Numbered from the stretch's first letter, positions 4,092 to 26,329 are shown. The stretch: 27,692 nt of DNA from Promethearchaeota archaeon (GCA_048941265.1 JBHLNT010000042.1:1-27692); one strand, 5' to 3'. Notes: generated from the letters alone by a model not told the origin. Made by a program: numbers and translations.

Positions 4092-4287
4092 TTTATAACT
4101 CACCTTTAAGGTTTTTTTATAATAAACCTATAAGTACTATTTTTTTTTAAACAATTTAAGCTTTTTTTCAGTTGTTATTCATACTAAAACTTGTGAGTCA
4201 TAAATTTATTTAGAAAGCAAAAACAAGAAAATTAATTAAATTACTTAAAAAAATAAATAAAAAGTAAAATTTAGGAATAAGATTTAG

Positions 4288-7713: not shown

Positions 7714-7714
7714 G

Positions 7715-9553
7715 CTATACTTTCTCCTCTCCTTTTAATAATTGTTCAACGCTAATATCAAACTTTTTGATAAATATTTTCTGGTACTCGTCTGACGCTT
7801 TTAAAAGCTCTTCATGCGTGCCTTGGGCTATAATTCTGCCACTCTTTAGAACAATGATAAGATCAGCCCATCTTATCTGACTTAAACGGTGAGTAATTAT
7901 GATTGTTGTCCTGTCTTGAAGGATATTGTGTATTGCGCGTTGAATTTTGTCTTCAGTGTCAGAGTCAATTGCTGACGTAGAATCATCTAGGATAAGAATG
8001 CGTGGATCCGTAAGAAATGCCCGAGCAATGGCAATTCTCTGTCTTTCACCACCACTTAACTGAACTCCCCGTTCCCCAACCTCAGAATTATAACCATTAG
8101 GGAATTCAGATATAAATTGGTGTGCTTGAGCTTGTTTAGCTGCCATCTCTACCTCTTCTATAGAACTTACTCTCCCAAAAGCTATATTTTCAAAAACGGT
8201 TGTGGAAAACAAGAAAACATCCTGTTCAATGTATGATATTTGACTTCTAAGAGATTCCAACGCATAGTCACGTACATCTACATCATCTATCAAGATCTTT
8301 CCTTCATCAACATCATATAATCTTGAAATTAATTTAGTCAATGTCGTTTTTCCTGACCCCGTGGTACCTACAATTGCGACTGTTTGGCCTGGTTTTATTT
8401 CGAAAGAAATATTTTTTAATACTAAAGAGCCTTTATCATATGAAAAAGAAACATTTTCAAATTTTATACTGCCATCTATTAACTTTTCAGTACCTTCAGG
8501 ATTTTCATCAATATCAGTTTCCTGATTCATAAAATTGAGTAACCTTTCAGAACTTGTTATAGCCATTCTTACAACTGCAAATACAAATATCGAAATAAAA
8601 GTGGAAAAGCGAAGAAGACTTATTAATCCCAGATATGCTATGATTTGGCCAATGCTAATAAGCCCTAGTGTGTATAAATAAATAGAATGCGCTAGCCCAA
8701 ATGTAACCGATATAGCAAAAAATAAAAGCGGTAAATACTTTGCTTGAATGTTACCTTGTTTCACAAATGCATCTCTGTATCTTTTTGCTTTTCCAAAATA
8801 TTTTTTCATTTCGGTCTCTTCTTGGGTCGTTCCTTTTACTACTTCTATTCCCGTTAAAGTTTCATTTAAGATAGCATTCATTTGCCCAAATTCTGCCCTC
8901 ATTATCCCAGTCACGGTACCAATTTTACGAATATAATCTCTTAATGTAATGAGAAAAATTATTACAAAAGCAATTGGGACTATAAGTAATTGCGTGGGAA
9001 AAAATAAGGCAATATATATTATAGGAATAATCATAGAAGTGAAAGATTCTAATATAAGAGAAAATGCGGGACTAATCATGAAATTAAGCATACGAACATC
9101 ATCAGTAGTACGTGCCATGATTTCTCCTATTTTTTGCTGATCGTGAAATGATTGGCTTTTTCCTAGAAGGTTTGCGTAAAATTCCTTACGAACATCTCTT
9201 TCTAACCTTTGGGCCAATACCTCACGCAACATAGAATTTATTAATCTTAATATTGGTGCACTAATCCCTAAAATTAAAATTATTTCAACATAAAACATTA
9301 AATTCGAATTATTTCCATTTAAGAAATCTGATATCGCCATACCTAAAACAATCATTGATATCGAAGTTAAATTAACAGTAAGTATAGTGAGGAATAGAAC
9401 GGTAAAAACATAATATTTATTGGACTTATAAAATAAATGCGCTAAAATCCATTGTCTGGTCCCTTTTTGACGAGCTTTAATGAATCGCTCTTCAGTTTCC
9501 GGCGAAAATTCTACTAAGGGTGCTACATTAATGTTTTTCGAATTTGTTTTCAT
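7715..9553 (-). CDS. ABC exporter half-transporter (TMD+NBD), heterodimer subunit A, copy 1
   Basis: Walker A GTTGSGKT, signature LSGGERQR and degenerate Walker B ILILDDST (catalytic E replaced by D). Confidence 0.95.
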   Translation of the reverse strand: MKTNSKNINVAPLVEFSPETEERFIKARQKGTRQWILAHLFYKSNKYYVFTVLFLTILTVNLTSISMIVLGMAISDFLNGNNSNLMFYVEIILILGISAPILRLINSMLREVLAQRLERDVRKEFYANLLGKSQSFHDQQKIGEIMARTTDDVRMLNFMISPAFSLILESFTSMIIPIIYIALFFPTQLLIVPIAFVIIFLITLRDYIRKIGTVTGIMRAEFGQMNAILNETLTGIEVVKGTTQEETEMKKYFGKAKRYRDAFVKQGNIQAKYLPLLFFAISVTFGLAHSIYLYTLGLISIGQIIAYLGLISLLRFSTFISIFVFAVVRMAITSSERLLNFMNQETDIDENPEGTEKLIDGSIKFENVSFSYDKGSLVLKNISFEIKPGQTVAIVGTTGSGKTTLTKLISRLYDVDEGKILIDDVDVRDYALESLRSQISYIEQDVFLFSTTVFENIAFGRVSSIEEVEMAAKQAQAHQFISEFPNGYNSEVGERGVQLSGGERQRIAIARAFLTDPRILILDDSTSAIDSDTEDKIQRAIHNILQDRTTIIITHRLSQIRWADLIIVLKSGRIIAQGTHEELLKASDEYQKIFIKKFDISVEQLLKGEEKV

Positions 9554-9800
9554 TTACTTTTCGATTGCTTTTTTTTCTTACTTAACGTAATTTTTAAAAT
9601 AGAAGAGATAAGAAAAAATTTATTATTTTTAAGAAAATAGTAATAATCTATTATTGAATCACTAATCGTATTATTATCTAATTTATTCTTTATGATTAAC
9701 TAATATAATTAGATATGTCTATTTCTTATTTTTAACTATAATTATTAATTAGATTATCAAAAAAGTTTAGGAAAATTACCGATTAGACAAGAGAGAAAAG

Positions 9801-11618
9801 TTAAGTGAGCCCTTCTTTTATTTTTCTCATTTTTTCGACATATTCTAAAGACTGATGGCGGAAATATGTATTGTAAAGAGCAGCATACTTACCACCCCGC
9901 GCCATTAATTCATCATGAGTACCCTCTTCAATTATTTTTCCATGATCCAAGACAATAATTCGATCCACATGTCGCACTGTCCAAAGGCGGTGCGCGATAA
10001 TTATCGAAGTTCGATTCTGAATTGTCTTTTCAAGTGCATCTTGAATTCGTGTTTCGGTAAAAGGATCAACAGAGGCAGTGGCTTCATCAAGTATAAGAAT
10101 TGATGGATTTTCTAATAATGTACGCGCGAAAACAACTAATTGGCGTTGTCCCATAGATAGTAAGCTTCCTCTTTCACGAATGTATGTATCTAATCCTTTC
10201 GACATCTCCTCAGTCCAATTAGAACCGCCTGCTTGTTTGAGTGCTAATATAATATTTTCTTTATCAGCTACTTCACAACAATACTTGATATTGTTTTCAA
10301 TAGTATCTGCCCATAAGAAAGGTGTCTGAGGGATAATCCCTATTTGTTTTCTATATTCCTTTAAATTAAATTCTCGGATGCTAGTATCATCAATCAGAAT
10401 GTCACCTTCTTGAAATTCATAGAATCTTGCTATTAATTTTGCAATTGTAGATTTACCAGCTCCAGTATGACCAACGATTGCTAACGATTCCCCCGGATTT
10501 ATGATAAGATTGAAATTTTCAAAAATATTTTCTCCTTCTTTATATTGAAAGGTAACATTTCTAAATTCAATCTTTCCTTTAAATTTAGGAGGATTCAAAT
10601 CATTATTTTGAATAACTACCGGTTTAGCATCAATGAGAGCAAATATCCTTTCAGAAGCTGCTAAACCTGCTTGAAATTGAGGCCAAAAAGCTGCTACAAT
10701 AAATAGAGGATATACTAAAATCCAAAGACTTTGTAGAAATAAAAATAAATCTCCAGGTTGTATTTGCCCATTTAAAATAGCAATTCCTCCATAATACATT
10801 AATAATACTAGGACTATCCCTTGAATAATCCCTAAAGAAGGAAATATAGCATTTAATACCCACGCCCTTCTCAAATTAACATTATAAGATTGAATATTCA
10901 CATCCTTAAATTTCTCATTTAATTTTTCTTCTTGCCTAAAAGTTTTAGCAATCTGAATACCAGATAAAATTTCTTTAACCATTTCGTTTACCGTTGCTAA
11001 AGCACGTTGACCCAAGAGAGTTTTTTTTCTAGCAAGTTTTCGAAAGAAAAAAGCAAGGATGAAAAATAAGGGAATTGCTAATACAAATGCAAAAAATAAT
11101 ATCAAATTAATGAATGCCATGTATACTAACAAAATACCTAAAATGAATATCGAAGAGATTACTTGATTAGCTAAATCCACCATATTTCCGAAATCTTGAC
11201 TATCTGAGTTAATTCGGCTAACTATCTTTCCGATAGGATTTTTGTCAAAAAAAGAGAGATCATGCTCTAATACAGCAGTTGCAGCATCCTTTCTTAGATC
11301 TAATAATACGTTACCTAACGCTTTAGCTGAATAATTCCAATTAAGATAATTGAACACATAGCTGAGTAGGTTAGAAATAAGAATAATAAATAATAATAGA
11401 ATTAAATTATTGGGATTTTGATTAATTGTTAAATCATTTAATAGAATAGCAGATAAAATGGGAACAAGCGCACTTACTAGAGATGAGAATATTAATGTTA
11501 TAATAACTATTGACATTTCTCTTTTATAAGGAAGAAAATAGGTAAAAATTCGATTTAATAATTCTTTATCACTATATTTTCTATCATACTCTTCTGCCTC
11601 CAATCCGATAAATGACAT
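9801..11618 (-). CDS. ABC exporter half-transporter, heterodimer subunit B, copy 2
   Basis: GHTGAGKS, LSMGQRQ, ILILDEATASVDPFTETRIQDALEKTI; a clear paralogue of 5893..7713. Confidence 0.95.
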   Translation of the reverse strand: MSFIGLEAEEYDRKYSDKELLNRIFTYFLPYKREMSIVIITLIFSSLVSALVPILSAILLNDLTINQNPNNLILLLFIILISNLLSYVFNYLNWNYSAKALGNVLLDLRKDAATAVLEHDLSFFDKNPIGKIVSRINSDSQDFGNMVDLANQVISSIFILGILLVYMAFINLILFFAFVLAIPLFFILAFFFRKLARKKTLLGQRALATVNEMVKEILSGIQIAKTFRQEEKLNEKFKDVNIQSYNVNLRRAWVLNAIFPSLGIIQGIVLVLLMYYGGIAILNGQIQPGDLFLFLQSLWILVYPLFIVAAFWPQFQAGLAASERIFALIDAKPVVIQNNDLNPPKFKGKIEFRNVTFQYKEGENIFENFNLIINPGESLAIVGHTGAGKSTIAKLIARFYEFQEGDILIDDTSIREFNLKEYRKQIGIIPQTPFLWADTIENNIKYCCEVADKENIILALKQAGGSNWTEEMSKGLDTYIRERGSLLSMGQRQLVVFARTLLENPSILILDEATASVDPFTETRIQDALEKTIQNRTSIIIAHRLWTVRHVDRIIVLDHGKIIEEGTHDELMARGGKYAALYNTYFRHQSLEYVEKMRKIKEGLT

Positions 11619-11621
11619 AAT

Positions 11622-13454
11622 TTATACCTCTTCCTTTAATAATTGTGTTACATCAACATCAAATCTTTTAATAAATATTTTCTGATATTCGTCTGAGGTT
11701 TTTAAGAGATCTTCATGGGTGCCTATTGCATCAATTTTTCCTTTTTTCAAAACTATTATTTTATCAGCCCATCGAATTTGACTTAATCGATGAGTGATGA
11801 GTATTGTGGTGCGATCTCTAAGAATATTATTAATCGCTTCTTGTATTTTATCTTCAGTTTCAGAATCAATTGCCGAGGTAGAGTCATCTAAAATTAAAAT
11901 CTTTGGATTAGCAAGGAAAGCTCTTGCTATAGCAATTCTCTGCCTTTCTCCACCACTTAATTGAACTCCTCTTTCTCCTACTTCTGAATTATATCCTTCA
12001 GGAAAATTTGAAATAAAATCATGTGCTTGTGCTTGTTTGGCAACCTCGATTACTTCTTCTAAAGAACTTCCTCTCCCAAATGAAATATTGTCAAAAATGG
12101 AGGTAGAAAATAAAAATACATCTTGTTCAATGTAGGAAATTTGACTTCTGAGAGATTTCAATGAATAATCTCGAATGTCTATATCATCAATAGTAATTCT
12201 ACCTTCTGAAACATCATATAACCGAGAAATCAATTTTGTTAATGTCGTTTTACCTGCCCCTGTAGCACCTACCACCGCAAGTGTTTGTCCGGGGTCTACC
12301 TCAAATGAAATGTTTTTTAATACAGGTTTAACATCATCTGGATATTTAAAAGTAACATCCTCAAATTTGATTTTTCCTTCAAGATCTTTTTGTTTCCCTT
12401 CTTTATTTTCATCTATTTCTGTTTCTTTATTCATAACTTCTAATAACCTGTTAGATGATGCTTGTGCTAATTTTACTAGTGCAAATATGAATATAGAAAT
12501 ATTAGTAGGAAAACGTAATAACGCAAATAAACCCATATAGGCAATAATTTCCCCTATTGTTAAAATCCCTTGATAATATAAATAAATTGATTGTGCTAAC
12601 CCAATAGTGATAGCAATTGCAAGTATTAAAAGTGGAGTATATTTTGCTTGAATTTTTCCTTCTTGCATATAAGCATCTCTATATTTTCGAGCATGAACTA
12701 GATATTTTTGGGATTGTCTGATCTCCTGAGCTGTACTTTTTATAAGTTCTATGCCAGTAAGACTTTCATTTAATTTGTCGTCCATTTCTCCAAATTCTGT
12801 CCGTAATTGCATAGTAACAGGACCTAATTTCCGATTATAATCTCTTAAAGCTATCAAAAATAAAATTGTAAAGATTAAAGGTGCTATTGCTAATTCACTT
12901 GGGTAAAAGATAATAATATAAATAATTGGAACCACTAAGGAGGAAAAAGACTCAAAAATTAAGGATAGTGCGGGACTTACTAAAAAATTTAACATTCTAA
13001 CGTCCTCAGTGGCACGAGCCATAATATCTCCCGTCTTTTGTTGCTCATGGAAAGATTGACTCTTTCCTAAAAGATTTTGCAAAAATTCTTTGCGGGTATC
13101 TCTCTCCATTCTTTGAGCAAGTACTTCTCTTAACATAAAATTAATTAATCTCAATATAGGGGTACCAATTCCAAGGATTAAAATCAATATAATATAATAT
13201 TGGAATCTTGATTGGTCTCCATTTAAAAAATCAGTAATTGCTAACCCTATAACAATCAAAATAAGAGAAGATAAATTAGCTGTAATAATTGTAGTGATAA
13301 ACACAATAATAACGATATATTTATTATTTTTATAAAATAAGTGTGCTAATATCCAAGATCTTACTCCCTTTTGGCGAGCTTTTATAAAAACGTCTTTTTC
13401 GGGGGAGAATTCGACATAGTGTTGATTATTTTCATTATTTTGATGGGTTTTCAT
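11622..13454 (-). CDS. ABC exporter half-transporter, heterodimer subunit A, copy 2
   Basis: GATGAGKT, LSGGERQR, ILILDDST; a clear paralogue of 7715..9553. Confidence 0.95.
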   Translation of the reverse strand: MKTHQNNENNQHYVEFSPEKDVFIKARQKGVRSWILAHLFYKNNKYIVIIVFITTIITANLSSLILIVIGLAITDFLNGDQSRFQYYIILILILGIGTPILRLINFMLREVLAQRMERDTRKEFLQNLLGKSQSFHEQQKTGDIMARATEDVRMLNFLVSPALSLIFESFSSLVVPIIYIIIFYPSELAIAPLIFTILFLIALRDYNRKLGPVTMQLRTEFGEMDDKLNESLTGIELIKSTAQEIRQSQKYLVHARKYRDAYMQEGKIQAKYTPLLILAIAITIGLAQSIYLYYQGILTIGEIIAYMGLFALLRFPTNISIFIFALVKLAQASSNRLLEVMNKETEIDENKEGKQKDLEGKIKFEDVTFKYPDDVKPVLKNISFEVDPGQTLAVVGATGAGKTTLTKLISRLYDVSEGRITIDDIDIRDYSLKSLRSQISYIEQDVFLFSTSIFDNISFGRGSSLEEVIEVAKQAQAHDFISNFPEGYNSEVGERGVQLSGGERQRIAIARAFLANPKILILDDSTSAIDSETEDKIQEAINNILRDRTTILITHRLSQIRWADKIIVLKKGKIDAIGTHEDLLKTSDEYQKIFIKRFDVDVTQLLKEEV

Positions 13455-15386: not shown

Positions 15387-16847
15387 TTAATTTCTTGATT
15401 GTTTATCATTTTTAAAGACATTTTGATAATACCATTCTTTTAGATCTTCTATTTTTAATGTTTTATATTCTAAGAGAAGTTCTCCTTTCGCATCGGATTC
15501 AATTTTTTTAAATAATTCGTGACAGATATCAGGATTATCCTCTGCCACATCATAATTCCAGTCAGGATCTTTTCTTAAGTTAAATAATTTTTGTTTAGAT
15601 TTATCATTAGATGTGATAAAAGCATATTGATTATCTTTATACAAAGTGTGTAAACCATATCCGCATGTAATATAATCTCGATTAGTAATTAATTGATCTT
15701 TCCCTTCAACAAAAATCGATAGATCAATTCCCTCAAACACATCCGGCTTTTCTTTATTGAGAAAACCAAACAAAGTTGGCAAGATATCATGAACATATAC
15801 ATAGGGTTTTTTAATTAGTTTTGGACCATTAACCCCATCCGGAGGTTTAATTATAAGGGGAATATCAACTACTTCGGGATACATATAGTTTGGCATTTTT
15901 CCAACAATGTTGTGTTCACCAATACAATGACCATGATCGCTCATAAGAATAATTAAAGATTCTTCATATAATTCCATTTGTTTTAATTCATTGATGAAAT
16001 GACCAAACCAGTAATCACACATCGAAACTTCTCCCGCATAGCACGCTCTTAAATAGTTTAATTCCCCATCAGTAATGCAATTTAGATTATCATTATAAAT
16101 GGGTTGTATGATTTTTGCTCCGGAATAGCCTTTGTCAACATACATGTCTAAATATTTTGGCGAGGGATCCCATGGTTCATGAGGATCGAACTCGTCAAGT
16201 ATACTAAAGACGTTTTGAAAGTTTCTCGTATCTTTAACAAATTGAATAGCTTTAGTAAAAGTTTGGGCTGGAAAGTAATCATCTTCAGTTATTCTATCTT
16301 GGACGTTTCTAAAATACATTTCTAACACTATTCTTTGATACTTTTTTATCCCACGATGCTTTTTTGTTGCGATACTATGCTCATCTAGAAGTTCATTAAT
16401 TTCAGATTCATCTTTAAGCAAATTAGCCCTGAATTTATCTAACTCTTGTCCTCTTATCCAATGAAATTGATCAAATCCTAAATGAAAGTTCATATTTGGT
16501 TTAAATTGATGGAAAGTACTAGTTATAAGAGATGTTGTATAATGAAAACTTTTCATATATTCCCCTATATGTTTTTGGTAAGGCGGAATTGGAAACCAAC
16601 CGGGATCCGAGACAAAATCATCCGTCCTAAGAATTTTCATGTCTTGATTAAATGGAAATGTTCTTATTCCAGTATGAATTGCTCTTCGAACTGGAATAGT
16701 TGCAAGGGATTCTGGATATGCGTTATCGAATACGATTGAATCTTTTGCCAAAGCATCAAAATTTGGCGTTTTAATCCAATTGTTCCCATATGTTCTACCA
16801 GTATGGTCCTTGCGTAAAGTATCAAATATAATCAGAAAAATCTTCAT
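15387..16847 (-). CDS. Sulfatase-like / alkaline phosphatase superfamily hydrolase with Thr at the nucleophile position
   Basis: Motifs 'IIFDTLRKDH', 'TPNFDALA', 'T-I-P-V-R-R-A-I-H-T-G', 'DPHEPW' and 'MSDHGH'. Confidence 0.88.
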   Translation of the reverse strand: MKIFLIIFDTLRKDHTGRTYGNNWIKTPNFDALAKDSIVFDNAYPESLATIPVRRAIHTGIRTFPFNQDMKILRTDDFVSDPGWFPIPPYQKHIGEYMKSFHYTTSLITSTFHQFKPNMNFHLGFDQFHWIRGQELDKFRANLLKDESEINELLDEHSIATKKHRGIKKYQRIVLEMYFRNVQDRITEDDYFPAQTFTKAIQFVKDTRNFQNVFSILDEFDPHEPWDPSPKYLDMYVDKGYSGAKIIQPIYNDNLNCITDGELNYLRACYAGEVSMCDYWFGHFINELKQMELYEESLIILMSDHGHCIGEHNIVGKMPNYMYPEVVDIPLIIKPPDGVNGPKLIKKPYVYVHDILPTLFGFLNKEKPDVFEGIDLSIFVEGKDQLITNRDYITCGYGLHTLYKDNQYAFITSNDKSKQKLFNLRKDPDWNYDVAEDNPDICHELFKKIESDAKGELLLEYKTLKIEDLKEWYYQNVFKNDKQSRN

Positions 16848-17144
16848 AATTGAGTAGAACTATTACTTAGTTGTTATTAATTTTTACATTTCAGCATGTT
16901 TTTAATCTGTTTTAAGAAAATCCCAGCGACAAAAATCGGATATTAATAATAATATGATGCAATTTAAGTTATCATAAATTTAAACCGCCATAAATTATCA
17001 AATTTCTCAAATATCTAAAATATCAAGTATAGTCTTAAAATTATTAATCCATTAATATAATATTAACATCTTAATAGCTCACTCTATATTTATATAGATT
17101 TTATAAGGAGTTTATTTAAATAGCAGAGTTTTTATATTATAATT

Positions 17145-17294
17145 ATGGCCAAATTTGATATTGCCTATGACATAGGATTAGAAGAACTGTATGATAAGGT
17201 CAGAATGCAAATATGGATAAATGAAGAATTACAACTTCAGCCTAAGTCAATACAAGAAACAATAATTAGGACTTACCAAGAACTTAATAGGTAA
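17145..17294 (+). CDS. Small hypothetical protein (49 aa), not in the ORF track
   Basis: MAKFDIAYDIGLEELYDKVRMQIWINEELQLQPKSIQETIIRTYQELNR*. TATA-like TTTATTTAAA at 17111-17120 and a hairpin plus T-run just downstream. Confidence 0.55.
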   Translation: MAKFDIAYDIGLEELYDKVRMQIWINEELQLQPKSIQETIIRTYQELNR

Positions 17295-17300
17295 TATTCA

Positions 17301-17321
17301 GTCATTCAGTGACCTTTTTTT
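17301..17321 (+). terminator. Short hairpin plus T-tract after the 49-aa ORF
   Basis: GTCAT-TCA-GTGAC followed by CTTTTTTT. Confidence 0.4.
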
Positions 17322-17729
17322 AATTACTATTCAATTCCTTATCGTCCTGAAGTTCATTTTATATTGATTCTAATATAATACTTGAAAATTCCAAAATGTA
17401 AACGATTTATAATCTTGTTTAAGGCCCAATTTTTCTAATATAACTAATATATATTTCCACTTTTTATCTTGTTTTCTAATTTTAAATTAAACTGCTCATT
17501 TTCTTTATAAGAGGAATGGTATATATTGAACATTATTCAGTGAAAAACGCTAAGGATATACATTGTTCATTGTTCTTACTTTTTATTAACAATTATGAAA
17601 AGATTCTTAAAAATTATGAAAAAGTTTTTAAACTTAAAATCAATATAAATTATAAGTTATATTAATCGTAGAAATATATATTAAATATATATTTTCGACA
17701 AAAATATAAATTTAATAAGTTGGTAGAAA

Positions 17730-19076
17730 TTGACAATTCAAGACATTGTACTCTTTCCAGGCTGTATGATATCATACCGTTTGCCCTTTATTGAAGTGTC
17801 AGTAAGAAAAGCATTGGACTTTTTTGGAATTCAATTTACAGAAAATCTAAACTTTAGTTGTTGTCCCGAACCGAATGGAATCAAAAATACTAACGAGTTA
17901 TTATATTCTGTAACTGCTGCTAGAAACCTCGCAATTGCCGAATTAGAAGGGAGAGATATTTTAACCCCATGTAATGGTTGTTTTGAAACTTTAAAAGGGA
18001 TACGGAGTGAGATTAAAACAGATTCCCATTTTCGAGCTAAAATTAATTCTTATCTTAATAAGATTGATTTAAATGTTAGTGGAGAAAAAGATGTCTATCA
18101 TTTAGTTGAATTTTTTCACAAATTAGGAAAAGATACAATTAAAGACAATATTGAATATCCTTTAACTGGCTTAAGAGTTGCAGTTCATTACGGGTGTCAT
18201 TTTCTCAGGCCTAGTGAAAAAATCCAAATGGATGATCCGATGGAGCCTCACTTTTTTGATACACTAATTGAAGATCTCGGGGCAAAGAGTGTTGATTATG
18301 ATCGTAAAATGGATTGTTGTGGAGGTAGTCTTGCCAGAGCGGATAATCCAGATTCTGGAATGGAGCAAATTCATACAAAGTTAGAAGCGATGAAAGATGC
18401 AAGAATCGATTGTATTGTTGTTGGTTGCCCCCAATGTTTTATTCAATTTGATCACCTCCAACAAGACTTGAAAAAATTGGATTATGAGTATGATATTCCT
18501 GTGCTATATTATTCTGAACTTTTATGTATAGCATTGGGAATTGATATCAGAGAGATTCTTGAAAAATATCATCGAACTCAAGTTAAGAGTGTTTTTGAGA
18601 AGGTGGATCTTATCCATCAAAAAAATGAAGAGATCAAAAAATATTTTGATGTCGAATTTTTAAAAAAATGTTATTCCTGTGGGGCATGCAATAATGATTG
18701 CCCTATAGCGAAAATATCAGATTTTGATCCAAACGAAATAATTGGAAAAATTCTTGATGGGAAAATAGATAAGGTAATAAAAGACCCTCTAATTTGGATG
18801 TGTCTTGATTGTTATGTGTGCTATGAATTGTGCCCCATGAGAGTAGGTTTAGTGGAAGTTTTTACAAAGCTAAGAAATTTAGCAAGAGAAAAGGGGTATA
18901 TTACAAAGGGATTTAAAGGAGAATTTGATTCTTTTAAAAAGATGGGAACAGTTGCGATGTTTTCTCATTCAGCCAGAAAGAGAGTCGGTTTGGAATCCGC
19001 TAAACCAGAACTAAGTGATTTAAAAAAATTAATCAGTGAGATAGAAAAAGAAAAGGAGATGGAAGGGAGTAGCTAA
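17730..19076 (+). CDS. hdrBC: Heterodisulfide reductase HdrB-HdrC fusion-like protein (two CCG domains plus a 2x[4Fe-4S] domain)
   Basis: HdrB motifs FPGC, SCCPEP, TPCNGCF, HYGCHFLRP, DCCGG and GCPQCFIQFD. C-terminal HdrC motifs CYSCGACNNDCP and CLDCYVCYELCP. TTG start. Confidence 0.88.
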   Translation: MTIQDIVLFPGCMISYRLPFIEVSVRKALDFFGIQFTENLNFSCCPEPNGIKNTNELLYSVTAARNLAIAELEGRDILTPCNGCFETLKGIRSEIKTDSHFRAKINSYLNKIDLNVSGEKDVYHLVEFFHKLGKDTIKDNIEYPLTGLRVAVHYGCHFLRPSEKIQMDDPMEPHFFDTLIEDLGAKSVDYDRKMDCCGGSLARADNPDSGMEQIHTKLEAMKDARIDCIVVGCPQCFIQFDHLQQDLKKLDYEYDIPVLYYSELLCIALGIDIREILEKYHRTQVKSVFEKVDLIHQKNEEIKKYFDVEFLKKCYSCGACNNDCPIAKISDFDPNEIIGKILDGKIDKVIKDPLIWMCLDCYVCYELCPMRVGLVEVFTKLRNLAREKGYITKGFKGEFDSFKKMGTVAMFSHSARKRVGLESAKPELSDLKKLISEIEKEKEMEGSS

Positions 19077-19077
19077 C

Positions 19078-20271
19078 ATGCATTGGAAAAATTATACTAG
19101 TTTACCAGAAAAGTTTCGAAATGAAAGGGTGTTTGATGGTTGTGGTATTTCGGGCTATATTAACATAGATGGTACAAGAGATTCTGGAACTAAAGTTATT
19201 GATATGTTATGTATTTTACATGACAGAGAAAATGGGCTTGGAGCCGGTTTTGCTGCTTACGGAATATATCCGAAATATAAAGATTATTATGCACTTCATT
19301 TTTTATTTGATGATGAGCCAAGTAAAGAAATTGTATTACAGCATTTAGAAAAGACAGGGTATATAATTCAATCTGAAGTCATTCCCACTAAAACACCTTC
19401 GAATGTTGATAATCCCCCAATAACTTGGAGAGTGTTTTATGAGCCAAAAGAGATGAAGAGTATTTCAAAAGATGATCAAATGGTAAGTTTAGTAATGGAA
19501 ATTAATGAGAAGTTTGATGGAGCATTTATCATGTCATCGGGCAAAAATATGGGTGTTTTTAAGGGGAATGGATGGTCCCATGAAATAGCGGAATATTATA
19601 AAATTGCCGATTATAAAGCGTATATGTGGTTAGCCCATAGCCGATTTCCAACGAATACTCCTGGATGGTGGGGTGGAGCCCATCCATTTAATTTATTAGG
19701 GACTTCTGTAATCCATAATGGAGAGATAACTTCATATGGAACGAACATGAGATATTTAGAATCATTTGGTTATAAATGTACATTATTTACGGATACAGAA
19801 GTAATAGCATATTTATTTGATTTATTAGTCAGAAGGCATAAAATACCAATTTCAATAGCGAGTCTAGCCTTAGCTCCACCTTTATTTGATGAAATTATGA
19901 GAATGGAAAAAAAATATCAAATTGCCCTTAAAAATATAAGGGCAACTTACCGTTCTGCTATGCTAAATGGGCCATTCTCCATTGTAGTGGGTTTTAACGG
20001 TCTTGTGCCAACAATGATTGGATTAACAGATAGAAAAAAATTAAGACCTTTAGTTGCAGCCATCTCAGATGATGAGAATACTGTATATCTGAGTAGTGAA
20101 GAGGCTAGTTTTAAGAGATTGATGCTAAATCAATCTTCCTCATTTAAATTTAGGGAAATTTGGCATCCGAGAAGTGGTACGGCGATTGTCGCTAGATTAG
20201 GAGATGGTCTTTTAAGAAATGGCCTTGAAAAGCCATTTGAAAAATTAAAATTATCTGTAATAGGTGAATAA
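19078..20271 (+). CDS. gltB1: Glutamate synthase domain 1 (class II glutamine amidotransferase subunit)
   Basis: 'DGCGISG' (Cys22, Ntn nucleophile after propeptide removal), 'HDRENGLGAGFAAYG', 'AHSRFPTNTPGWWGGAHPF', 'IHNGEITSYG' and 'DRKKLRP'. Confidence 0.92.
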   Translation: MHWKNYTSLPEKFRNERVFDGCGISGYINIDGTRDSGTKVIDMLCILHDRENGLGAGFAAYGIYPKYKDYYALHFLFDDEPSKEIVLQHLEKTGYIIQSEVIPTKTPSNVDNPPITWRVFYEPKEMKSISKDDQMVSLVMEINEKFDGAFIMSSGKNMGVFKGNGWSHEIAEYYKIADYKAYMWLAHSRFPTNTPGWWGGAHPFNLLGTSVIHNGEITSYGTNMRYLESFGYKCTLFTDTEVIAYLFDLLVRRHKIPISIASLALAPPLFDEIMRMEKKYQIALKNIRATYRSAMLNGPFSIVVGFNGLVPTMIGLTDRKKLRPLVAAISDDENTVYLSSEEASFKRLMLNQSSSFKFREIWHPRSGTAIVARLGDGLLRNGLEKPFEKLKLSVIGE

Positions 20272-20274
20272 TAA

Positions 20275-21795
20275 ATGTCAATAAATCATGCAGTCCCAAC
20301 ATATTTTCGTGTTAATATCGATAGGGATTATTGTAAGAAATGCAAACGATGTGTTACCCATTGTTCTTATGGAGCATTATCTTTTAATGGAGAACGTATT
20401 GTAGCTGATGATAGCCTATGTGTGGCTTGCCAAAGATGTGTTGCGATGTGTCCGGGTAAAGCAATTAGAGTCGTAAAAAATGATTCTTATTTACCACCAC
20501 ATGGAAATTATACAAGAAGGATACGCAATATCATATGGGCTCAATCTGGGAATGGAGGTGTTTTATTAAGTGCCACTGGAAATGATAGGCCCATCAGAGT
20601 CATATTTGATGATTTGCTTCTTGACGCTTGTCAAGTTACAAATCCCGCAATTGATCCGTTAAGAGAAACTATTGAAACCAAAATATTTTTTGGTCGAAAG
20701 CCGAAAAAACTTGATTTCTCTATGGATGAGATAGATCCATCAAAAGTCTCATTAAAAACTGAAATTATGCCTCATTTCGAGATAGATATGCCAATTATGG
20801 TGGGTCATATGAGCTTAGGATCTATTAGTTATAATGCGTGTATGGCAATTTATCAGGCCTCTAAAGAGCTAAATATTCTTGCAGGTTCTGGAGAAGGAGG
20901 ACTTCATCCCGATTTCTATGAATATGGTCCGAATATCATTTCTGAAGTTGCATCAGGAAGATTTGGAGTGGATATTAACTATTTACACAATGTAGCGGGA
21001 CTTGAGATCAAGATTGGTCAAGGAGCAAAACCAGGACACGGAGGTCATTTACCAGGAGAGAAAGTCAATACTTTAATATCTCAAACGAGAATGATTCCCA
21101 AAGGTAGTGATGCATTGTCGCCTTATCCGCACCATGATATTTATTCAATAGAAGATCTTGCACAGTTAATCGCAGCTTTAAAGGAGGCTACTCGATATAA
21201 AGTGCCAGTTGGTGTGAAAATCGCAGCAGTTCACAATTCTGCACCAATAGCAGTAGGAATAGTTAGAGGAGGAGCGGATTTCTTGACTCTTGATGGTTTC
21301 CGTGGCGGTACTGGTGCAGCCCCAAGGATTATTCGGGATCATGCTGGTATTCCAATCGAATTAGCAATTGCTTCTGTTGATAAAAGATTACGAGAAGAGG
21401 GCCTTAGAGATGAGGTCACTTTAGTGGCGGGAGGATCTATTCGGTATTCTGCAGATCTGATAAAGGCGATTGCATTAGGAGCCGATGTAGGAATGTGCTG
21501 TTTACCAGTGCTAATCGCAATGGGTTGTAGAGTTTGCCAACAGTGTTTTAAAGGACTATGTTCATGGGGAATTGCTACTCAACAAGAATATTTAGTTAAG
21601 AGATTGGACATTGATGTTGCGAGGAATCGAATTATTAATCTCTTCCATAGCTGGAATGAAGAATTAAAGGAAGTTTTAGGAGCAATGGGAATAGATTCCG
21701 TCGAATCACTTCGTTCAAATAGGGATAGATTAAGATATATTGGTCCAAATCCCAAAATTGCTGATATATTAGGAGTAAAACATGCAGGTGAATAA
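20275..21795 (+). CDS. gltB2: Glutamate synthase domain 2 (FMN-binding, archaeal GltS type, with an N-terminal ferredoxin domain)
   Basis: CKKCKRCVTHC and CVACQRCVAMCP; MSLGSIS; GEGG; VASGRFGV; EIKIGQGAKPGHGGHLPGEKV; SPYPHHDIYSIEDL; CRVCQQCFKGLC. Confidence 0.96.
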   Translation: MSINHAVPTYFRVNIDRDYCKKCKRCVTHCSYGALSFNGERIVADDSLCVACQRCVAMCPGKAIRVVKNDSYLPPHGNYTRRIRNIIWAQSGNGGVLLSATGNDRPIRVIFDDLLLDACQVTNPAIDPLRETIETKIFFGRKPKKLDFSMDEIDPSKVSLKTEIMPHFEIDMPIMVGHMSLGSISYNACMAIYQASKELNILAGSGEGGLHPDFYEYGPNIISEVASGRFGVDINYLHNVAGLEIKIGQGAKPGHGGHLPGEKVNTLISQTRMIPKGSDALSPYPHHDIYSIEDLAQLIAALKEATRYKVPVGVKIAAVHNSAPIAVGIVRGGADFLTLDGFRGGTGAAPRIIRDHAGIPIELAIASVDKRLREEGLRDEVTLVAGGSIRYSADLIKAIALGADVGMCCLPVLIAMGCRVCQQCFKGLCSWGIATQQEYLVKRLDIDVARNRIINLFHSWNEELKEVLGAMGIDSVESLRSNRDRLRYIGPNPKIADILGVKHAGE

Positions 21796-21800
21796 TAAAG

Positions 21801-22625
21801 TTGATAGATAGTACTCTTATTTTAAGTAAAGAAAACAAAAAAACTATAGAAATAGATGCTTGCCCGAATGGTGAGTCCATAATCTATCAAGACTTAAATG
21901 AGAAAATTCATGAAGCTATAAGAGATGGATATGAGAGATTAATTTTGAATAATGTCTGTGGACAGCGATTTATAGCTGCATCCCTACAAGGAGATTTTGA
22001 GATAATTATAAATGGTGTTCCTGGAAATGATCTCGCTGTTTTTATGGATGGTCCTAAAATCATTGTTAATGGAAATTGTGAAGATCAAACTGGTAATACG
22101 ATGAATAATGGAATAATTCTAATAGATGGTGATGGTGGGGATGTCATTGGTCTATCCGCTAGAGGCGGTAAAATATATGTAAAAAAAGATGTGGGATATA
22201 GAGTTGGCATTCACATTAAAGAATACGAAAATCAATTTCCTGTCATAATCATCGGTGGGACGGCAAAAGACTTTTTAGGAGAATATATGGCAGGAGGGTT
22301 AATACTAGCTCTTGGACTTAAAATCTTACCTGATGGCTCTGTTATTGAGAGTGAAGAATCGATATGCGGAGGAGAATTAGGAACCGGAATTCATAGAGGC
22401 AAGATAATATTAAGAACTGAAGAGAATTTAGAACCGAAATTAGGAGTAGGAGCAAAACTTTTCGAAATAACTCCAGAAGAACTTAAAGAAATTGAACCAC
22501 TATTAAGAGAATTTTGCGAGTTTTTCAATATACCATATGAGATTATCGGGAATAAGCCTTTTAAAGTTATTAAACCAATCTCAAAAAGACCATTTGGTGG
22601 CAATTATTGTGGCCAAATTATATAA
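21801..22625 (+). CDS. gltB3: Glutamate synthase domain 3 (GXGXG beta-helix subunit)
   Basis: 'NVCGQRFIA', 'GVPGNDLAVFMDG', 'GNTMNNG' and 'FLGEYMAGG' GXGXG repeats; TTG start 5 nt after gltB2. Confidence 0.92.
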   Translation: MIDSTLILSKENKKTIEIDACPNGESIIYQDLNEKIHEAIRDGYERLILNNVCGQRFIAASLQGDFEIIINGVPGNDLAVFMDGPKIIVNGNCEDQTGNTMNNGIILIDGDGGDVIGLSARGGKIYVKKDVGYRVGIHIKEYENQFPVIIIGGTAKDFLGEYMAGGLILALGLKILPDGSVIESEESICGGELGTGIHRGKIILRTEENLEPKLGVGAKLFEITPEELKEIEPLLREFCEFFNIPYEIIGNKPFKVIKPISKRPFGGNYCGQII

Positions 22626-22730
22626 TCTCATTGAAAATCTTTTTCTAAATTTTACCCTTTTTTTCTCAAAAATTGTATTATGCATATTCTTGAATTAAAT
22701 TTAACTAACTTTAGTTTTTTTTGATTGAAA

Positions 22731-22835
22731 ATGTGTGAGATAAACGGATTCAGTTGGAAAGACAAACCAATGAATGAAAAAATGAATAATAAATTTATTC
22801 ATGGAAGTCCTCATTACTCTAATATTATTTATTAG
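22731..22835 (+). pseudogene. Degenerate N-terminal remnant of an asparagine synthetase B-like (class II GATase) gene
   Basis: MCEINGFSWKDKPMNEKMNNKFIHGSPHYSNIIY* aligns by eye with the AsnB N-terminus pattern MCGIxGF...MxxxxxHRGPD..G.Y, with G3 and the RGPD motif mutated and an early stop. Confidence 0.55.
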
Positions 22836-22980
22836 AACCAATTGCATCAAATCTAATAAGAGAAATAAGAGAGCTGTAATAAAAACTGGAATTTGAACTC
22901 TTATTTTAGATTTTCAAAATGTTTTTATAAACTCACTATTATATTTAAATTGAGGTTTCTGGTATAAGAAAAAACTGGAT

Positions 22981-23130
22981 ATGAAAGAATTAAAAAAATG
23001 TCCCAAATGTGGGAATATAATGGCCTTAAGGACATTTCTGTTAAATTCAAAAAAAATGCGAATAGTTCAATGTTTCGTATGTCGATATTGGGAACCCTTC
23101 ATTTCTGAAGATACAGCATATCCATCCTGA
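22981..23130 (+). CDS. Small zinc-ribbon protein (49 aa), not in the ORF track
   Basis: MKELKKCPKCGNIMALRTFLLNSKKMRIVQCFVCRYWEPFISEDTAYPS*, with CPxCG and CxxC motifs; TATA-like TATTTAAAT at about 22942-22950. Confidence 0.75.
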   Translation: MKELKKCPKCGNIMALRTFLLNSKKMRIVQCFVCRYWEPFISEDTAYPS

Positions 23131-23183
23131 TTGTTTTGATATGACAATTAGAATTAATCATTTAAAAAAAAAATTAAAATTAT

Positions 23184-24215
23184 TTAAATACTAACTGTCC
23201 AGCCAAACTCATCTTCGATTTCTAGGCGCTGGATTCCAGTTAATAAATTATAGAGTTTGATTGTTAATTCACCGGGCTGATGATTATTAAACACTTTTGT
23301 TTTCTCTTCCATATTGATTGAACCTATTGGAGTAATAACGGCTGCAGTTCCTGTACAAAACGTCTCTGTGCAATTATCTTCGAATAATTCTTTATATGAA
23401 ATATCTCTTTGTTCAACCTTAACTCCTAATTTTTTCTCGGCAAGCTCTAACACAGATTTAACTGTAATACCTTCAAGTATAGTCCCTATGAATCTAGGGG
23501 TGACAAGATTGCTATCTATGACACCACAAAAGTTAGCCGCTCCCACCTCATTTATGTATTCTAAATGTACAGAATCTAAATAAAGAATTTGAGCGAAACC
23601 TTTCATTTTTGCTTCTTTTGCTGGTTTCATGGTCCCCGCATAATTCCCTCCCATTTTTGTAAATCCCGTTCCTCCCTGAGAAGCTCTTGTGTACTTTTTT
23701 GAAATTTCAATATCGATAGCTTTAAAACCTTCAGGGAAATAAGGGCCGACAGGTGAGACAAAAATGATAAATTTAAATTCTTCGGCGGGTGCAACACCCA
23801 ACATCGGACCATTTCCAATCATTAAAGGTCGGATATATAATGCTCCGCCACTATCATAAGGCGGAATATATTCTTCATTAGCTCTTACAACGGTTTTAAG
23901 CGCATTGATGAATTTATGAGGATCGTATTTCGGCATAAGTAATCTTTCAGCGCTTTTGTTGAGTCTTTTTGCATTTTCACTTGGTCGGAATAAAGTGATA
24001 TCACCATTCTTTGCTCTCAATGCTTTCATTCCTTCAAAAAATGTTTGACCATAATTTAAGGCACAGGCAGCAGGGGAAATTTCTAAATTTCCAAAAGGAA
24101 CTAATTTACCCTCGTCCCATTCACCATCTTTATAGTCCGAAACGAACATCATTTTGGTTTTTATAAATTTAAAACCCAAATTATAAAAATCTATATCATT
24201 ACTTTTTACACTCAT
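23184..24215 (-). CDS. ilvE: Branched-chain amino acid aminotransferase (PLP fold type IV)
   Basis: LNYGQTFFEGMKA, LYIRP, PVGPY, PLP lysine in TKMGGNYA, EVGAAN, ILEGIT and TGTAAVITPI. Confidence 0.96.
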   Translation of the reverse strand: MSVKSNDIDFYNLGFKFIKTKMMFVSDYKDGEWDEGKLVPFGNLEISPAACALNYGQTFFEGMKALRAKNGDITLFRPSENAKRLNKSAERLLMPKYDPHKFINALKTVVRANEEYIPPYDSGGALYIRPLMIGNGPMLGVAPAEEFKFIIFVSPVGPYFPEGFKAIDIEISKKYTRASQGGTGFTKMGGNYAGTMKPAKEAKMKGFAQILYLDSVHLEYINEVGAANFCGVIDSNLVTPRFIGTILEGITVKSVLELAEKKLGVKVEQRDISYKELFEDNCTETFCTGTAAVITPIGSINMEEKTKVFNNHQPGELTIKLYNLLTGIQRLEIEDEFGWTVSI

Positions 24216-24667: not shown

Positions 24668-26329
24668 ATGGAATTAAAGATGAAAAATCGAAAATTAAAA
24701 TTAGTCATTGGTCAAATTAATCCTATTGTTGGAGACGTTGACTATAACAGAAATAAAATCATAAACATTATAGAAAGCAATCAAAATGCAGATATTATTG
24801 CATTTCCTGAGATGTCGTTGGTTGGATATCCATTAATGGACCATATCTATGACGATCTAATAAAAGAGAAAAATATGAATTCAATCGAAAAAATAAAGGA
24901 ATTGAATTCTTCATCAACGATCATTTTAGGTACATTTACCGAACCTCAAGAATTAAAGGAAAAAATCCAACATTTTTATAATTCTGCAATAGTAATTGAG
25001 GGAAAGATGATTAAATACATCGAAAACAAAAGACTTTTACCAAATTATGATATATTTGATGAGAGAAGATATTTTTCTTTTGACACTAAATTCACACCTA
25101 TTGAAATAAAAGGCATTAAGGTTGGATTACTAATCTGTGAAGATATTTGGGATAATTCGTATGATATCAAAGTCGCAGAAAACCTTGTTAATAATGGAGC
25201 TGAATTACTGATCATAATCAATGCTTCTCCATATCACATAAATAAATTTAACCTTAGAAAAGATTTAGTATGTGGAAAATCTAAAAGATTTTCTGTCCCT
25301 ATAGTATATGTTAATATGGTGGGAGGCCTTGACGAAATTGTTTATGACGGACAAAGTTTTATCACAAATAAATATGGTCAAATTATTTTTAAAGCAAAAG
25401 CTTTTGAAGAAGATATTAATCAAGTAGAAATTTCCATAGACGACCCAGCGGTAATCAAAGAACAAGATTATCATATTGATTGGAGGGAAGAAGTGTTAAA
25501 TGCTTTAAAATTGAATTTATTTGATTACTTTCATAAAAGCAATATTTTCAGCGGAGTTGTATTAGGATTGAGTGGAGGTATTGATTCGGCTTTAACAGCA
25601 TATATTTGCGCGAAAGCATTAGGACCAGATAAAGTCAATGCCATAATGATGCCTACAAGATATACCTCCCGAGAAAGTTTGGATTTAGCGCAAAAATTAT
25701 GTGAAAATATAGGTATTAACTATAATATTCACCCAATCGATGATCTATTTGATGCCTATGAAAATTCGATAGAAAAAAACCTTGGAAAAGTACCTTTTGA
25801 TATCGCGGACGAAAACCTCCAAGCTCGGATTAGAGCAACCATATTAATGTATTATTCAAATAAATTTAATTGGCTACTCGTCTCTACAGGCAATAAATCT
25901 GAAATTGGTGTAGGCTATTGCACTTTGTACGGAGATACCAATGGCGGCAAAAATGTGCCAGGTGATCTTTTAAAAGTGCAAATTTATGAAATCTGTGAAT
26001 ATATTAATAAAGATAAAGAAGAAATACCCCGAGGTATTATTGAAAGACCTCCAACCGCTGAGCTAAGAGAAAATCAAAAGGACAGTGATTCTCTACCTCC
26101 ATATGAAATTCTTGATATAATACTCGAAGAAATAGTTGAACATGGGGTCGGTTCAGAATTAGATCATCTGGTAAAAAAGGGTATTGATGCGCAAACTATT
26201 TTAAAAGTAAGAAAACTCTATTTAAATTCAGAATATAAGCGAAGACAACTAGTTCAATCAATAAAAATTAGTGAAAGTGCATTCGGAATAGGTAGAAGAT
26301 ACCCCGTATTAAAGAGATTAAAATTTTAA
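24668..26329 (+). CDS. nadE: Glutamine-dependent NAD+ synthetase (nitrilase-like glutaminase plus NAD synthase domains)
   Basis: Triad motifs FPEM, KRLLPNYDIFDERRYF and ICEDIW; PP-loop GLSGGIDSA; ENLQARIR; TGNKSE; PPTAEL. Alternative start at ATG 24680. Confidence 0.96.
   Translation: MELKMKNRKLKLVIGQINPIVGDVDYNRNKIINIIESNQNADIIAFPEMSLVGYPLMDHIYDDLIKEKNMNSIEKIKELNSSSTIILGTFTEPQELKEKIQHFYNSAIVIEGKMIKYIENKRLLPNYDIFDERRYFSFDTKFTPIEIKGIKVGLLICEDIWDNSYDIKVAENLVNNGAELLIIINASPYHINKFNLRKDLVCGKSKRFSVPIVYVNMVGGLDEIVYDGQSFITNKYGQIIFKAKAFEEDINQVEISIDDPAVIKEQDYHIDWREEVLNALKLNLFDYFHKSNIFSGVVLGLSGGIDSALTAYICAKALGPDKVNAIMMPTRYTSRESLDLAQKLCENIGINYNIHPIDDLFDAYENSIEKNLGKVPFDIADENLQARIRATILMYYSNKFNWLLVSTGNKSEIGVGYCTLYGDTNGGKNVPGDLLKVQIYEICEYINKDKEEIPRGIIERPPTAELRENQKDSDSLPPYEILDIILEEIVEHGVGSELDHLVKKGIDAQTILKVRKLYLNSEYKRRQLVQSIKISESAFGIGRRYPVLKRLKF

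Follow-up and report, generated by a model that had tools for sequence, protein, structure and literature searches.

A fusion of the heterodisulfide reductase subunits HdrB and HdrC is probably a fourth subunit of an assimilatory glutamate synthase (GOGAT) of the split ('archaeal-type') form, dedicated to electron input; the enzyme would work together with glutamine synthetase (GS). The fusion is the predicted product of the first gene of a four-gene operon, in which it is followed by gltB1, gltB2 and gltB3. The operon lies on contig C266 of a Promethearchaeota archaeon (GCA_048941265.1, JBHLNT010000042.1); this contig, 27,692 nucleotides with a low GC content of 0.25-0.39 across its length, is called the window throughout, and the genome to which it belongs comprises 5.0 Mb in 361 contigs and is 91% complete. 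The textbook donors of GOGAT are NADPH, NADH and ferredoxin, F420 has been proposed for some methanogens, and the donor of the split, archaeal-type enzyme has long been uncertain. Our work points to a glutamate synthase whose electron-input subunit is of a new type, and to an undescribed electron feed into nitrogen assimilation. That the fusion serves GOGAT as a dedicated redox partner is highly probable to judge from the gene order described below; that its electrons would be drawn from a thiol pair, by oxidation at the HdrB site, is a tentative proposal, and one that may well fail.

Conserved linkage of the fusion gene with split glutamate synthase genes

The four genes fill positions 17730-22625 of the window as four open reading frames (ORFs) in one orientation, with intergenic gaps of only 1, 3 and 5 nt. 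Our ORF calls agree in every detail with the layout given by the first-pass annotation, an earlier reading of the same DNA. That annotation had named a linkage unique to the host genome as a finding that would speak against its proposal, and the linkage proved to be far from unique: The gene order is kept both in Asgard archaea and in high-GC bacteria. In a first Asgard survey, based on contigs from one genome per species, we found 39 loci with a fusion 60-92% identical to that of the window, and the closest relatives stem from metagenome-assembled genomes labelled Promethearchaeota/Promethearchaeia, i.e. of the Asgard/Lokiarchaeia type. The gltB1 gene directly follows the fusion gene in 34/34 of the loci that have at least 600 nt of downstream DNA, and gltB1, gltB2 and gltB3 follow in this order in 26 of the 27 loci with at least 4200 nt. 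In the sole exception, L023 (2722-6250), unrelated genes including leucine-rich-repeat-like ORFs stand after gltB1 and gltB2 is located on another contig, which may reflect a rearrangement or an assembly join. In many of the orthologous loci the predicted ORFs overlap, and genes outside the four are not conserved among the loci.

A second survey addressed co-occurrence across a sample of 300 Asgard genomes. Here, the full-length fusion had a patchy distribution: Of the 68 other genomes that belong to the family of the host, 17 contain it, and a close GltB2 was found in all 17, while two genomes of the same genus (99% and 92% complete) had neither the fusion nor a close GltB2 with these queries. 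A second Asgard clade of fusions was detected in six genomes from three further families; its fusions are about 40% and its GltB2 proteins about 58% identical to those of the window, and the order fusion-gltB1-gltB2-gltB3 is again kept as indicated by the match coordinates, with confirmation by tblastn in four of the six loci (L117-L120).

The first-pass annotation had framed such a survey as an archaeal one. The linkage indeed recurs in archaea, but the fusion family is mostly bacterial, and most of the diversity that we saw is found there. A profile search against 1.84 billion representatives yielded about 25 clusters (at 50% identity) of full-length fusions with the order B then C; ranked below them were HdrB proteins of the ordinary kind, with about 290 aa, and a small number of C-then-B fusions. 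The members carry the source labels Eubacteriales, Nitrospirae, Coriobacteriia, Actinobacteria, Chloroflexi and Thermoleophilia. We scanned metagenomes with an alignment of 32 sequences and obtained 80 loci with a median GC content of 0.66, 14 of which end less than 600 nt past the fusion gene; their nearest representatives belong to the clades labelled Coriobacteriia and Actinobacteria/Thermoleophilia. The neighbourhood is again the same: gltB1 is located next to the fusion gene in 66/66 loci with at least 600 nt of downstream DNA, and all three glt genes are present in 36/36 loci with at least 4200 nt, even though the fusions share only 35-40% and the GltB2 proteins 52-56% identity with those of the window. 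If the archaeal and the metagenome loci are pooled, gltB1 comes next in 100 of the 100 loci with enough DNA, at fusion identities from 92% down to 35%. Thus, the suggestion of the first-pass annotation that the fusion is the dedicated partner of a split GOGAT gains support, with the four-gene order in all sufficiently long loci but one. These data define a family of B-then-C HdrBC fusions for which split GOGAT is the only conserved genomic partner in the sampled loci. Its members are currently named 'heterodisulfide reductase subunit B', 'B/C subunit' or 'heterodisulfide reductase-related iron-sulfur binding cluster' in the source databases; in reconstructions of Asgard metabolism, a heterodisulfide reductase name may be mistaken for a sign of energy metabolism, and the assignment to GOGAT offers a better name.

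The position upstream of gltB1 can be occupied by other redox proteins. In other Asgard GOGAT operons (L113-L116), a gene for a flavoprotein of 434-461 aa with the domains Pyr_redox_2 and Rubredoxin_C overlaps the start of gltB1. In NCBIfam, this flavoprotein is best matched by subunits of NADH-dependent Fe-S reductases, PadH and NirB among them; the GltB2 proteins of these operons are 51-55% identical to that of the window, and glnA precedes the flavoprotein gene in three of the four loci (L114-L116). In another locus (L112), a Fer4_11 protein and a Pyr_redox_2 protein are inserted between gltB2 and gltB3. Both arrangements can coexist, as contig C4 of genome G041 carries an HdrBC-type (L119) and a flavoprotein-type (L115) GOGAT operon about 25 kb apart. 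A GltB2 tree places the flavoprotein-type sequences as the sister group of the bacterial fusion-type ones; a single GltB2 lineage has therefore exchanged its partner. Moreover, an FrhB-type 'subunit 4' has been assigned to the Methanothermobacter GOGAT (PMC3087415), and FrhB paralogues have been reported to cluster with GOGAT subunits in ANME genomes (PMC9012536). Since flavoprotein and FrhB modules are both found at split GOGATs, the slot upstream of gltB1 looks like a place for interchangeable electron-input modules, the HdrBC fusion being one of them.

The fusion protein, the synthase core and the surrounding DNA

The fusion has both CCG domains and both CxxCxxCxxxCP motifs that the first-pass annotation had recognised, as is evident from the sequence itself and from the Pfam matches. 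The cysteines of the CCG motifs are C12...C44C45...C81xxC84 and C156...C196C197...C233xxC236, and the ferredoxin motifs for two [4Fe-4S] clusters are C314xxC317xxC320xxxC324-P and C358xxC361xxC364xxxC368-P. All 18 Fe-S cysteines, ten in the HdrB-like and eight in the HdrC-like half, are invariant in 114/114 fusions, and G406, S412, R416 and L421 in the tail of the HdrC half are invariant in alignment A1. The protein lies below the cut-offs of the NCBIfam models for HdrB (TIGR03288, aa 6-292, 259.6 bits, cut-off 345.15), HdrC (TIGR03290, aa 312-439, 84.1 bits, cut-off 160) and NF041780 (143.7 bits, cut-off 450). Its relation to solved heterodisulfide reductases is nevertheless close: With phmmer, aa 5-294 match the HdrB chains 8rvu_b (E 2e-62) and 5odc_B (E 3e-51) with an identity of 33-39%, and aa 289-440 match the HdrC chains 8rvu_c and 5odc_C (E about 2e-19). 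An AlphaFold2 model of the fusion (pLDDT 84.6, pTM 0.77) superposes on the HdrB chains with a TM score (target) of 0.90-0.91 and an rmsd of 2.5 A and on the HdrC chains with a TM score of 0.51-0.55. The nearest clusters in the ESM Atlas are CCG plus Fer4 proteins of mostly bacterial origin; the domain order is not given there, and we regard them as a lead only.

The active site of HdrB from M. thermolithotrophicus provides a reference for the substrate of the fusion. In that protein, the sulfonate of coenzyme M (CoM) is described as touching the backbone NH groups of Gly46 and Gly198, the carboxylate of coenzyme B (CoB) is bound by Arg201 and its phosphate by Arg14 and Arg240, and a lipophilic tunnel is lined by Phe233 (PMC13261682). 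We transferred these residues to the 114 fusions through the phmmer alignment. The equivalent of Arg14 at fusion position 17 is an arginine in 114/114 proteins, and that of Arg201 at position 203 in 111 of 114. At position 242, which corresponds to Arg240, arginine occurs in 0/114; the fusions have H, L, V, S, A, T or F instead, mostly H in Asgard archaea and mostly L or V in bacteria. Position 235, equivalent to Phe233, is Q or S, with F in a single one of the 114 proteins. The fusion thus has two of the three arginines and lacks the tunnel phenylalanine of the CoM/CoB-binding residue set. As judged from this alignment, the reactive site and part of the anion-binding pocket are retained and the features specific for coenzyme B are lost, which suggests thiol/disulfide chemistry on a different, probably anionic, substrate.

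The domain set of a split GOGAT is complete in the other three proteins, with GATase_2 and its nucleophilic cysteine, PF01645 with the Fe-S cysteine motif, and PF01493. The catalytic cysteine of GltB1 is C22, which is preceded by a conserved leader of 21 residues. The corresponding motif reads 'RVFDG|CGISG' in the Asgard orthologues and 'FKIHGG|CGLMG' in the bacterial ones, and some proteins begin directly with M-C. The nucleophile motif 'G|CG[IL]xG' was present in all Asgard sequences inspected and in those bacterial ones that had a readable N-terminus; in many high-GC loci the upstream stretch inspected stopped short of the motif. GltB2 combines an N-terminal 2x[4Fe-4S] ferredoxin domain (C20-C59) with a C-terminal four-cysteine motif (C418, C421, C424, C429), and the cysteines of both are invariant in 30 orthologues. 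Its best NCBIfam match is the GltB large subunit (PRK11750 over aa 176-489).

The context of the operon points to assimilatory GS-GOGAT. The commonest conserved neighbour is a type I glnA gene. In 14 bacterial loci it immediately follows gltB3 in the same orientation, and in about 13 Asgard loci it is found close to the operon. Neighbouring GlnA proteins score 504 and 530 bits with TIGR00653 (cut-off 429), and the type III model stays below its own cut-off. In the host genome, the only strong Glu_synthase match is gltB2 of the operon, glnA is located on a different contig, and a gene of the glutamate dehydrogenase (GDH) type is also present. Taken together, the syntenic glnA, the retained GltB1 cysteine, the single Glu_synthase match and the presence of both glnA and a GDH-type gene suggest an assimilatory enzyme. 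A PdtaS-type kinase and an ANTAR response regulator are encoded upstream in bacterial loci, and in Asgard loci Lrp/AsnC regulators, GMP synthase or NadE are often found nearby. Eight Asgard loci (L031, L033-L036, L044, L046, L047) have genes for small proteins of 81-172 aa directly upstream on the same strand, and a further member is located at L109:4666-4992. These proteins form a zinc-ribbon family with repeated CPxCGxxYxYxRxxCxxCE motifs and no Pfam or NCBIfam match, and may be regulators.

The coordinates of the operon are summarized in the table. The TTG start codon of the fusion gene lines up with ATG in four orthologous loci and with TTG in L009.

Positions of the operon genes, the two halves of the fusion and the candidate promoter region in the window
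Feature	Position	Strand	Description
AT-rich intergenic region, candidate promoter	16848..17729	+	GC 0.25 (17001-18000); aligned with five orthologous upstream regions
HdrB-HdrC fusion	17730-19076	+	448 aa, TTG start
HdrB-like half	17730..18605	+	aa 1-292; Pfam CCG x2, 84.6 bits
HdrC-like half	18606..19076	+	aa 293-448; Pfam 4Fe-4S dicluster (Fer4_8), aa 311-372
gltB1	19078-20271	+	397 aa; class II (Ntn) glutamine amidotransferase subunit; Pfam GATase_2
gltB2	20275-21795	+	506 aa; FMN synthase subunit; Pfam Glu_synthase, 415 bits, and Fer4 families
gltB3	21801-22625	+	274 aa; GXGXG (beta-helix) subunit; Pfam GXGXG (PF01493), 93 bits

A promoter for the operon is likely to be located in the AT-rich region ahead of the fusion gene. 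Conserved A/T blocks (TTTAAA/TATA-like) are found about 60-115 nt ahead of the start codon when positions 17600-17729 of the window are compared with the orthologues. In L021 and L018, the upstream blocks include the near-palindrome TTATGATAAATTCATAA beside a TTTAAA box, and the palindrome is weaker in the window; the two elements could be an operator and a TATA box. A scan for sigma-70 promoters and terminators gave counts at the level of shuffled sequence, the model being inapplicable to an archaeon, and the NrpR-type operator GGAA-N6-TTCC had 0 matches in the window. An Rfam scan of positions 16700-23300 returned only a sub-threshold snoRNA-like match inside gltB1.

Two genes downstream of the operon encode a class IV aminotransferase (23184-24215, minus strand), which is common only to L009 and L027, and the glutamine-dependent NAD synthetase NadE with CN_hydrolase and NAD_synthase domains (24668-26329, plus strand), which is also located downstream in L009 and of which N-terminal fragments lie at the edge of L033 and L047. 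We considered both genes as members of the operon and rejected them since they are shared with the closest loci only. Elsewhere in the window, four tandem genes on the minus strand (5893-13454) encode proteins of about 605-612 aa with ABC_membrane and ABC_tran domains each, and look like two duplicated pairs of half-transporter exporters. The ORFs at 1149-1925 and 3111-4103 have no Pfam matches at all.

Proposed electron route and competing explanations

From gene order, conservation, motifs and fold, which can be seen directly, we infer that the four proteins would act as one enzyme; the direction of the electron flow and the nature of the donor are proposed on the same basis. A thiol pair would be oxidised to a disulfide at the HdrB-like half, which would thus work in the oxidative direction. 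The likeliest donor would be some thiol pair different from CoM-SH/CoB-SH; it could be an anionic thiol of low molecular weight or a dithiol of a protein. The HdrC-like half, with its two [4Fe-4S] clusters, would pass the electrons on singly to the ferredoxin domain at the N-terminus of GltB2, which has two such clusters as well, and from there they would run via the C-terminal Fe-S site of GltB2 to the FMN. The FMN would then reduce 2-iminoglutarate that is made from 2-oxoglutarate and the ammonia freed from glutamine by GltB1. By standard values, the effective acceptor potential of the conversion of glutamine and 2-oxoglutarate to two molecules of glutamate lies far above those of common thiol/disulfide couples, so that the transfer would be downhill. 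If this is true, nitrogen assimilation would be tied directly to the thiol/disulfide pool of these anaerobes, and the disulfide produced could feed Hdr-type electron bifurcation. It is tempting to speculate that these operons represent a further class of GOGAT in Asgard archaea and in anaerobic bacteria labelled Actinomycetota, fed by thiol-pair electrons via HdrB-type non-cubane clusters rather than by NAD(P)H, ferredoxin or F420; on balance we regard so broad a claim as doubtful. A prediction of the complex of GltB2 and the fusion with alignments of 30 rows each gave scores of 0.18 and 0.27, below the mark of 0.32, and counts neither way. No natural fusion of an HdrBC protein to a Glt domain was found in our searches, which is weak evidence.

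Several observations weigh against this reading. The ferredoxin domain of GltB2 could itself accept electrons directly from ferredoxin, and none of the recurrent neighbour families of the operon is a thiol-carrier gene. The NCBIfam and Foldseek matches of the fusion include CCG proteins such as GlpC, GlcF, LutA, EtfD and SdhE, none of which, to our knowledge, is known as a thiol enzyme. Finally, three genomes of one Asgard genus (L109, L110, L111) have intact gltB1-gltB3 genes (80-83% identical) and no fusion. In one of them (G083), a startless remnant of 56 codons of the C-terminal tail of the fusion is located just upstream of gltB1 (L110:6172-6342, minus strand; 53% identical to fusion aa 374-441). 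The three genomes nest inside the fusion-type GltB2 clade, indicating that the fusion was lost secondarily. The GltB1-3 core may thus work, or persist for a while, without the fusion, e.g. directly with ferredoxin. The ferredoxin domain, the lost fusions, the lack of a conserved thiol-carrier gene near the operon and the matches to the first four of the CCG proteins named above would all suit a fusion that is a GOGAT subunit without thiol chemistry: a plain Fe-S relay that extends the cluster chain or takes electrons from ferredoxin or another carrier, its HdrB-like clusters being wire or structural elements. We consider such a relay unlikely, since bacteria and Asgard archaea alike show little or no variation in the ten cysteines of the non-cubane clusters and in two arginines that bind substrate, which one would not expect of a mere wire, and since a soluble ferredoxin could reach GltB2 without four additional clusters. 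It is also possible in principle that the HdrC-like half binds an HdrA encoded elsewhere, together with MvhD and a hydrogenase or another donor module, and that, in a complex with flavin-based electron bifurcation, glutamine plus 2-oxoglutarate takes the place of the heterodisulfide as high-potential acceptor. In the heterodisulfide reductase complexes of known structure, HdrC contacts HdrA. The titles of 5odc, 7bkb and 8rvu place HdrB and HdrC inside HdrA-containing complexes, and the host genome has HdrA and MvhD genes outside the window, with several separate hdrC-hdrB pairs and 10 MvhD/FlpD matches, several of these matches within ORFs of 797-1167 aa. Docking to HdrA nonetheless seems rather improbable: The flanks (up to 6-7 kb per side) of 43 Asgard and 80 metagenome loci hold no HdrA or MvhD gene, the conserved unit comprises exactly four genes, and the order HdrB then HdrC of the fusion is opposite to that of the hdrC-hdrB pairs in the genome. 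As an observation on these genes, four of the ten MvhD/FlpD matches (C138, C350, C301:42488-42853, C251) contain one or two in-frame TGA codons and may be selenocysteine-containing VhuD-type proteins.

The assimilatory signs described above argue both against an oxidative role and against N-methylglutamate synthase, two functions for which the first-pass annotation had left room. In an oxidative enzyme serving amino acid fermentation, glutamate would be oxidised at the FMN of GltB2, and a disulfide would receive the electrons at the HdrB site. HdrB-type sites do reduce disulfides in methanogens (PMC13261682), and there are signs of heterotrophy such as the transporters and a sulfatase in the window. 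With glnA syntenic, ANTAR/PdtaS-type regulators in the bacterial loci, and a separate GDH-type gene in the genome for glutamate oxidation, this role becomes very improbable; moreover, a glutaminase is useless in the oxidative direction, and its cysteine is kept wherever the N-terminus is readable. By rough thermodynamics, the full reverse GOGAT reaction is also strongly uphill. N-methylglutamate synthase, MgsABC, has the same three domain types as GltB1-3, so that the fusion might serve this reaction or that of another amidotransferase/FMN enzyme. We give hardly any credence to this idea: The neighbouring GS-family gene encodes a true type I GlnA above the cut-off, the best NCBIfam match of GltB2 is the GltB large subunit, and the ferredoxin domain and redox partner of GltB2 would be out of place in the synthesis of N-methylglutamate, for which electrons from outside are not required. 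No gene resembling N-methylglutamate dehydrogenase was seen in the eleven recurrent neighbour families scanned, three of which are without a family match. A mere co-location, with the fusion gene travelling along with the glt genes, would agree with the three genomes that dropped the fusion and kept the glt genes. We see next to no chance of this, since the adjacency holds over the whole range of fusion identities in all 100 loci from two domains of life, other neighbours are not conserved, and other known redox modules occupy the same slot. A dedicated electron-input subunit of an assimilatory split GOGAT thus remains the explanation that we favour, and the fusion is a concrete candidate for the missing electron-input module of this enzyme.

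Relation to known glutamate synthases and heterodisulfide reductases

No publication connecting glutamate synthase with a protein of the HdrB/HdrC type came up in our literature searches; subscription journals and supplementary files may hold one. A review on Fe-S flavoenzymes goes no further than noting archaeal ORFs that correspond to individual GltS domains (PMC8097209). The split enzyme shares the Ntn amidotransferase, FMN synthase and GXGXG domains with the bacterial NADPH-GOGAT (GltBD) and with the ferredoxin-GOGAT of plants and cyanobacteria. In contrast to the operon described here, these enzymes carry their domains on one large chain and receive electrons from GltD (FAD plus 2x[4Fe-4S]) or from ferredoxin. 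The statement of the first-pass annotation that gltD, FrhB-like and hdrA genes are missing from the window holds: None of these domains was detected by Pfam among the 19 ORFs scanned. In the host genome, the GltD-type domain Fer4_20 is confined to three matches in ORFs of about 920 aa on contig C211. MgsABC differs from the system by the ferredoxin domain of GltB2, the redox partner and the true type I glnA neighbour that are found here.

The flavoprotein-type split GOGAT of Asgard archaea is more similar in its layout: It has GltB1-3, the ferredoxin domain of GltB2, a redox gene directly upstream of gltB1 and an adjacent glnA. Its donor module, however, is a flavoprotein without Fe-S motifs, and the electrons presumably come from NAD(P)H. 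These flavoprotein-type operons are probably similar to the TM0394-TM0398 cluster of Thermotoga maritima. The FrhB-type split GOGAT, as described for Methanothermobacter (MTH193), where it is a putative F420-dependent enzyme, and for the FrhB10 clusters of ANME archaea, likewise has separate GltB1, GltB2 and GltB3 proteins and one extra redox subunit (PMC3087415, PMC9012536). Here, the extra subunit is an HdrB-HdrC fusion instead, which carries four Fe-S clusters and lacks a site for flavin or F420, and none of the four proteins contains an FrhB domain.

Finally, the fusion resembles the HdrBC proteins of methanogens (5ODC, 7BKB, 8RVU) in its CCG and ferredoxin motifs, in its fold and in the equivalents of Arg14 and Arg201. 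It differs from them in being one polypeptide with the order B then C that scores below the equivalog cut-offs, in the loss of the equivalents of Arg240 and Phe233, and in being encoded together with GOGAT genes and without an adjacent hdrA. The fusion would represent a new, non-methanogenic and non-sulfur role for HdrB-type non-cubane clusters.

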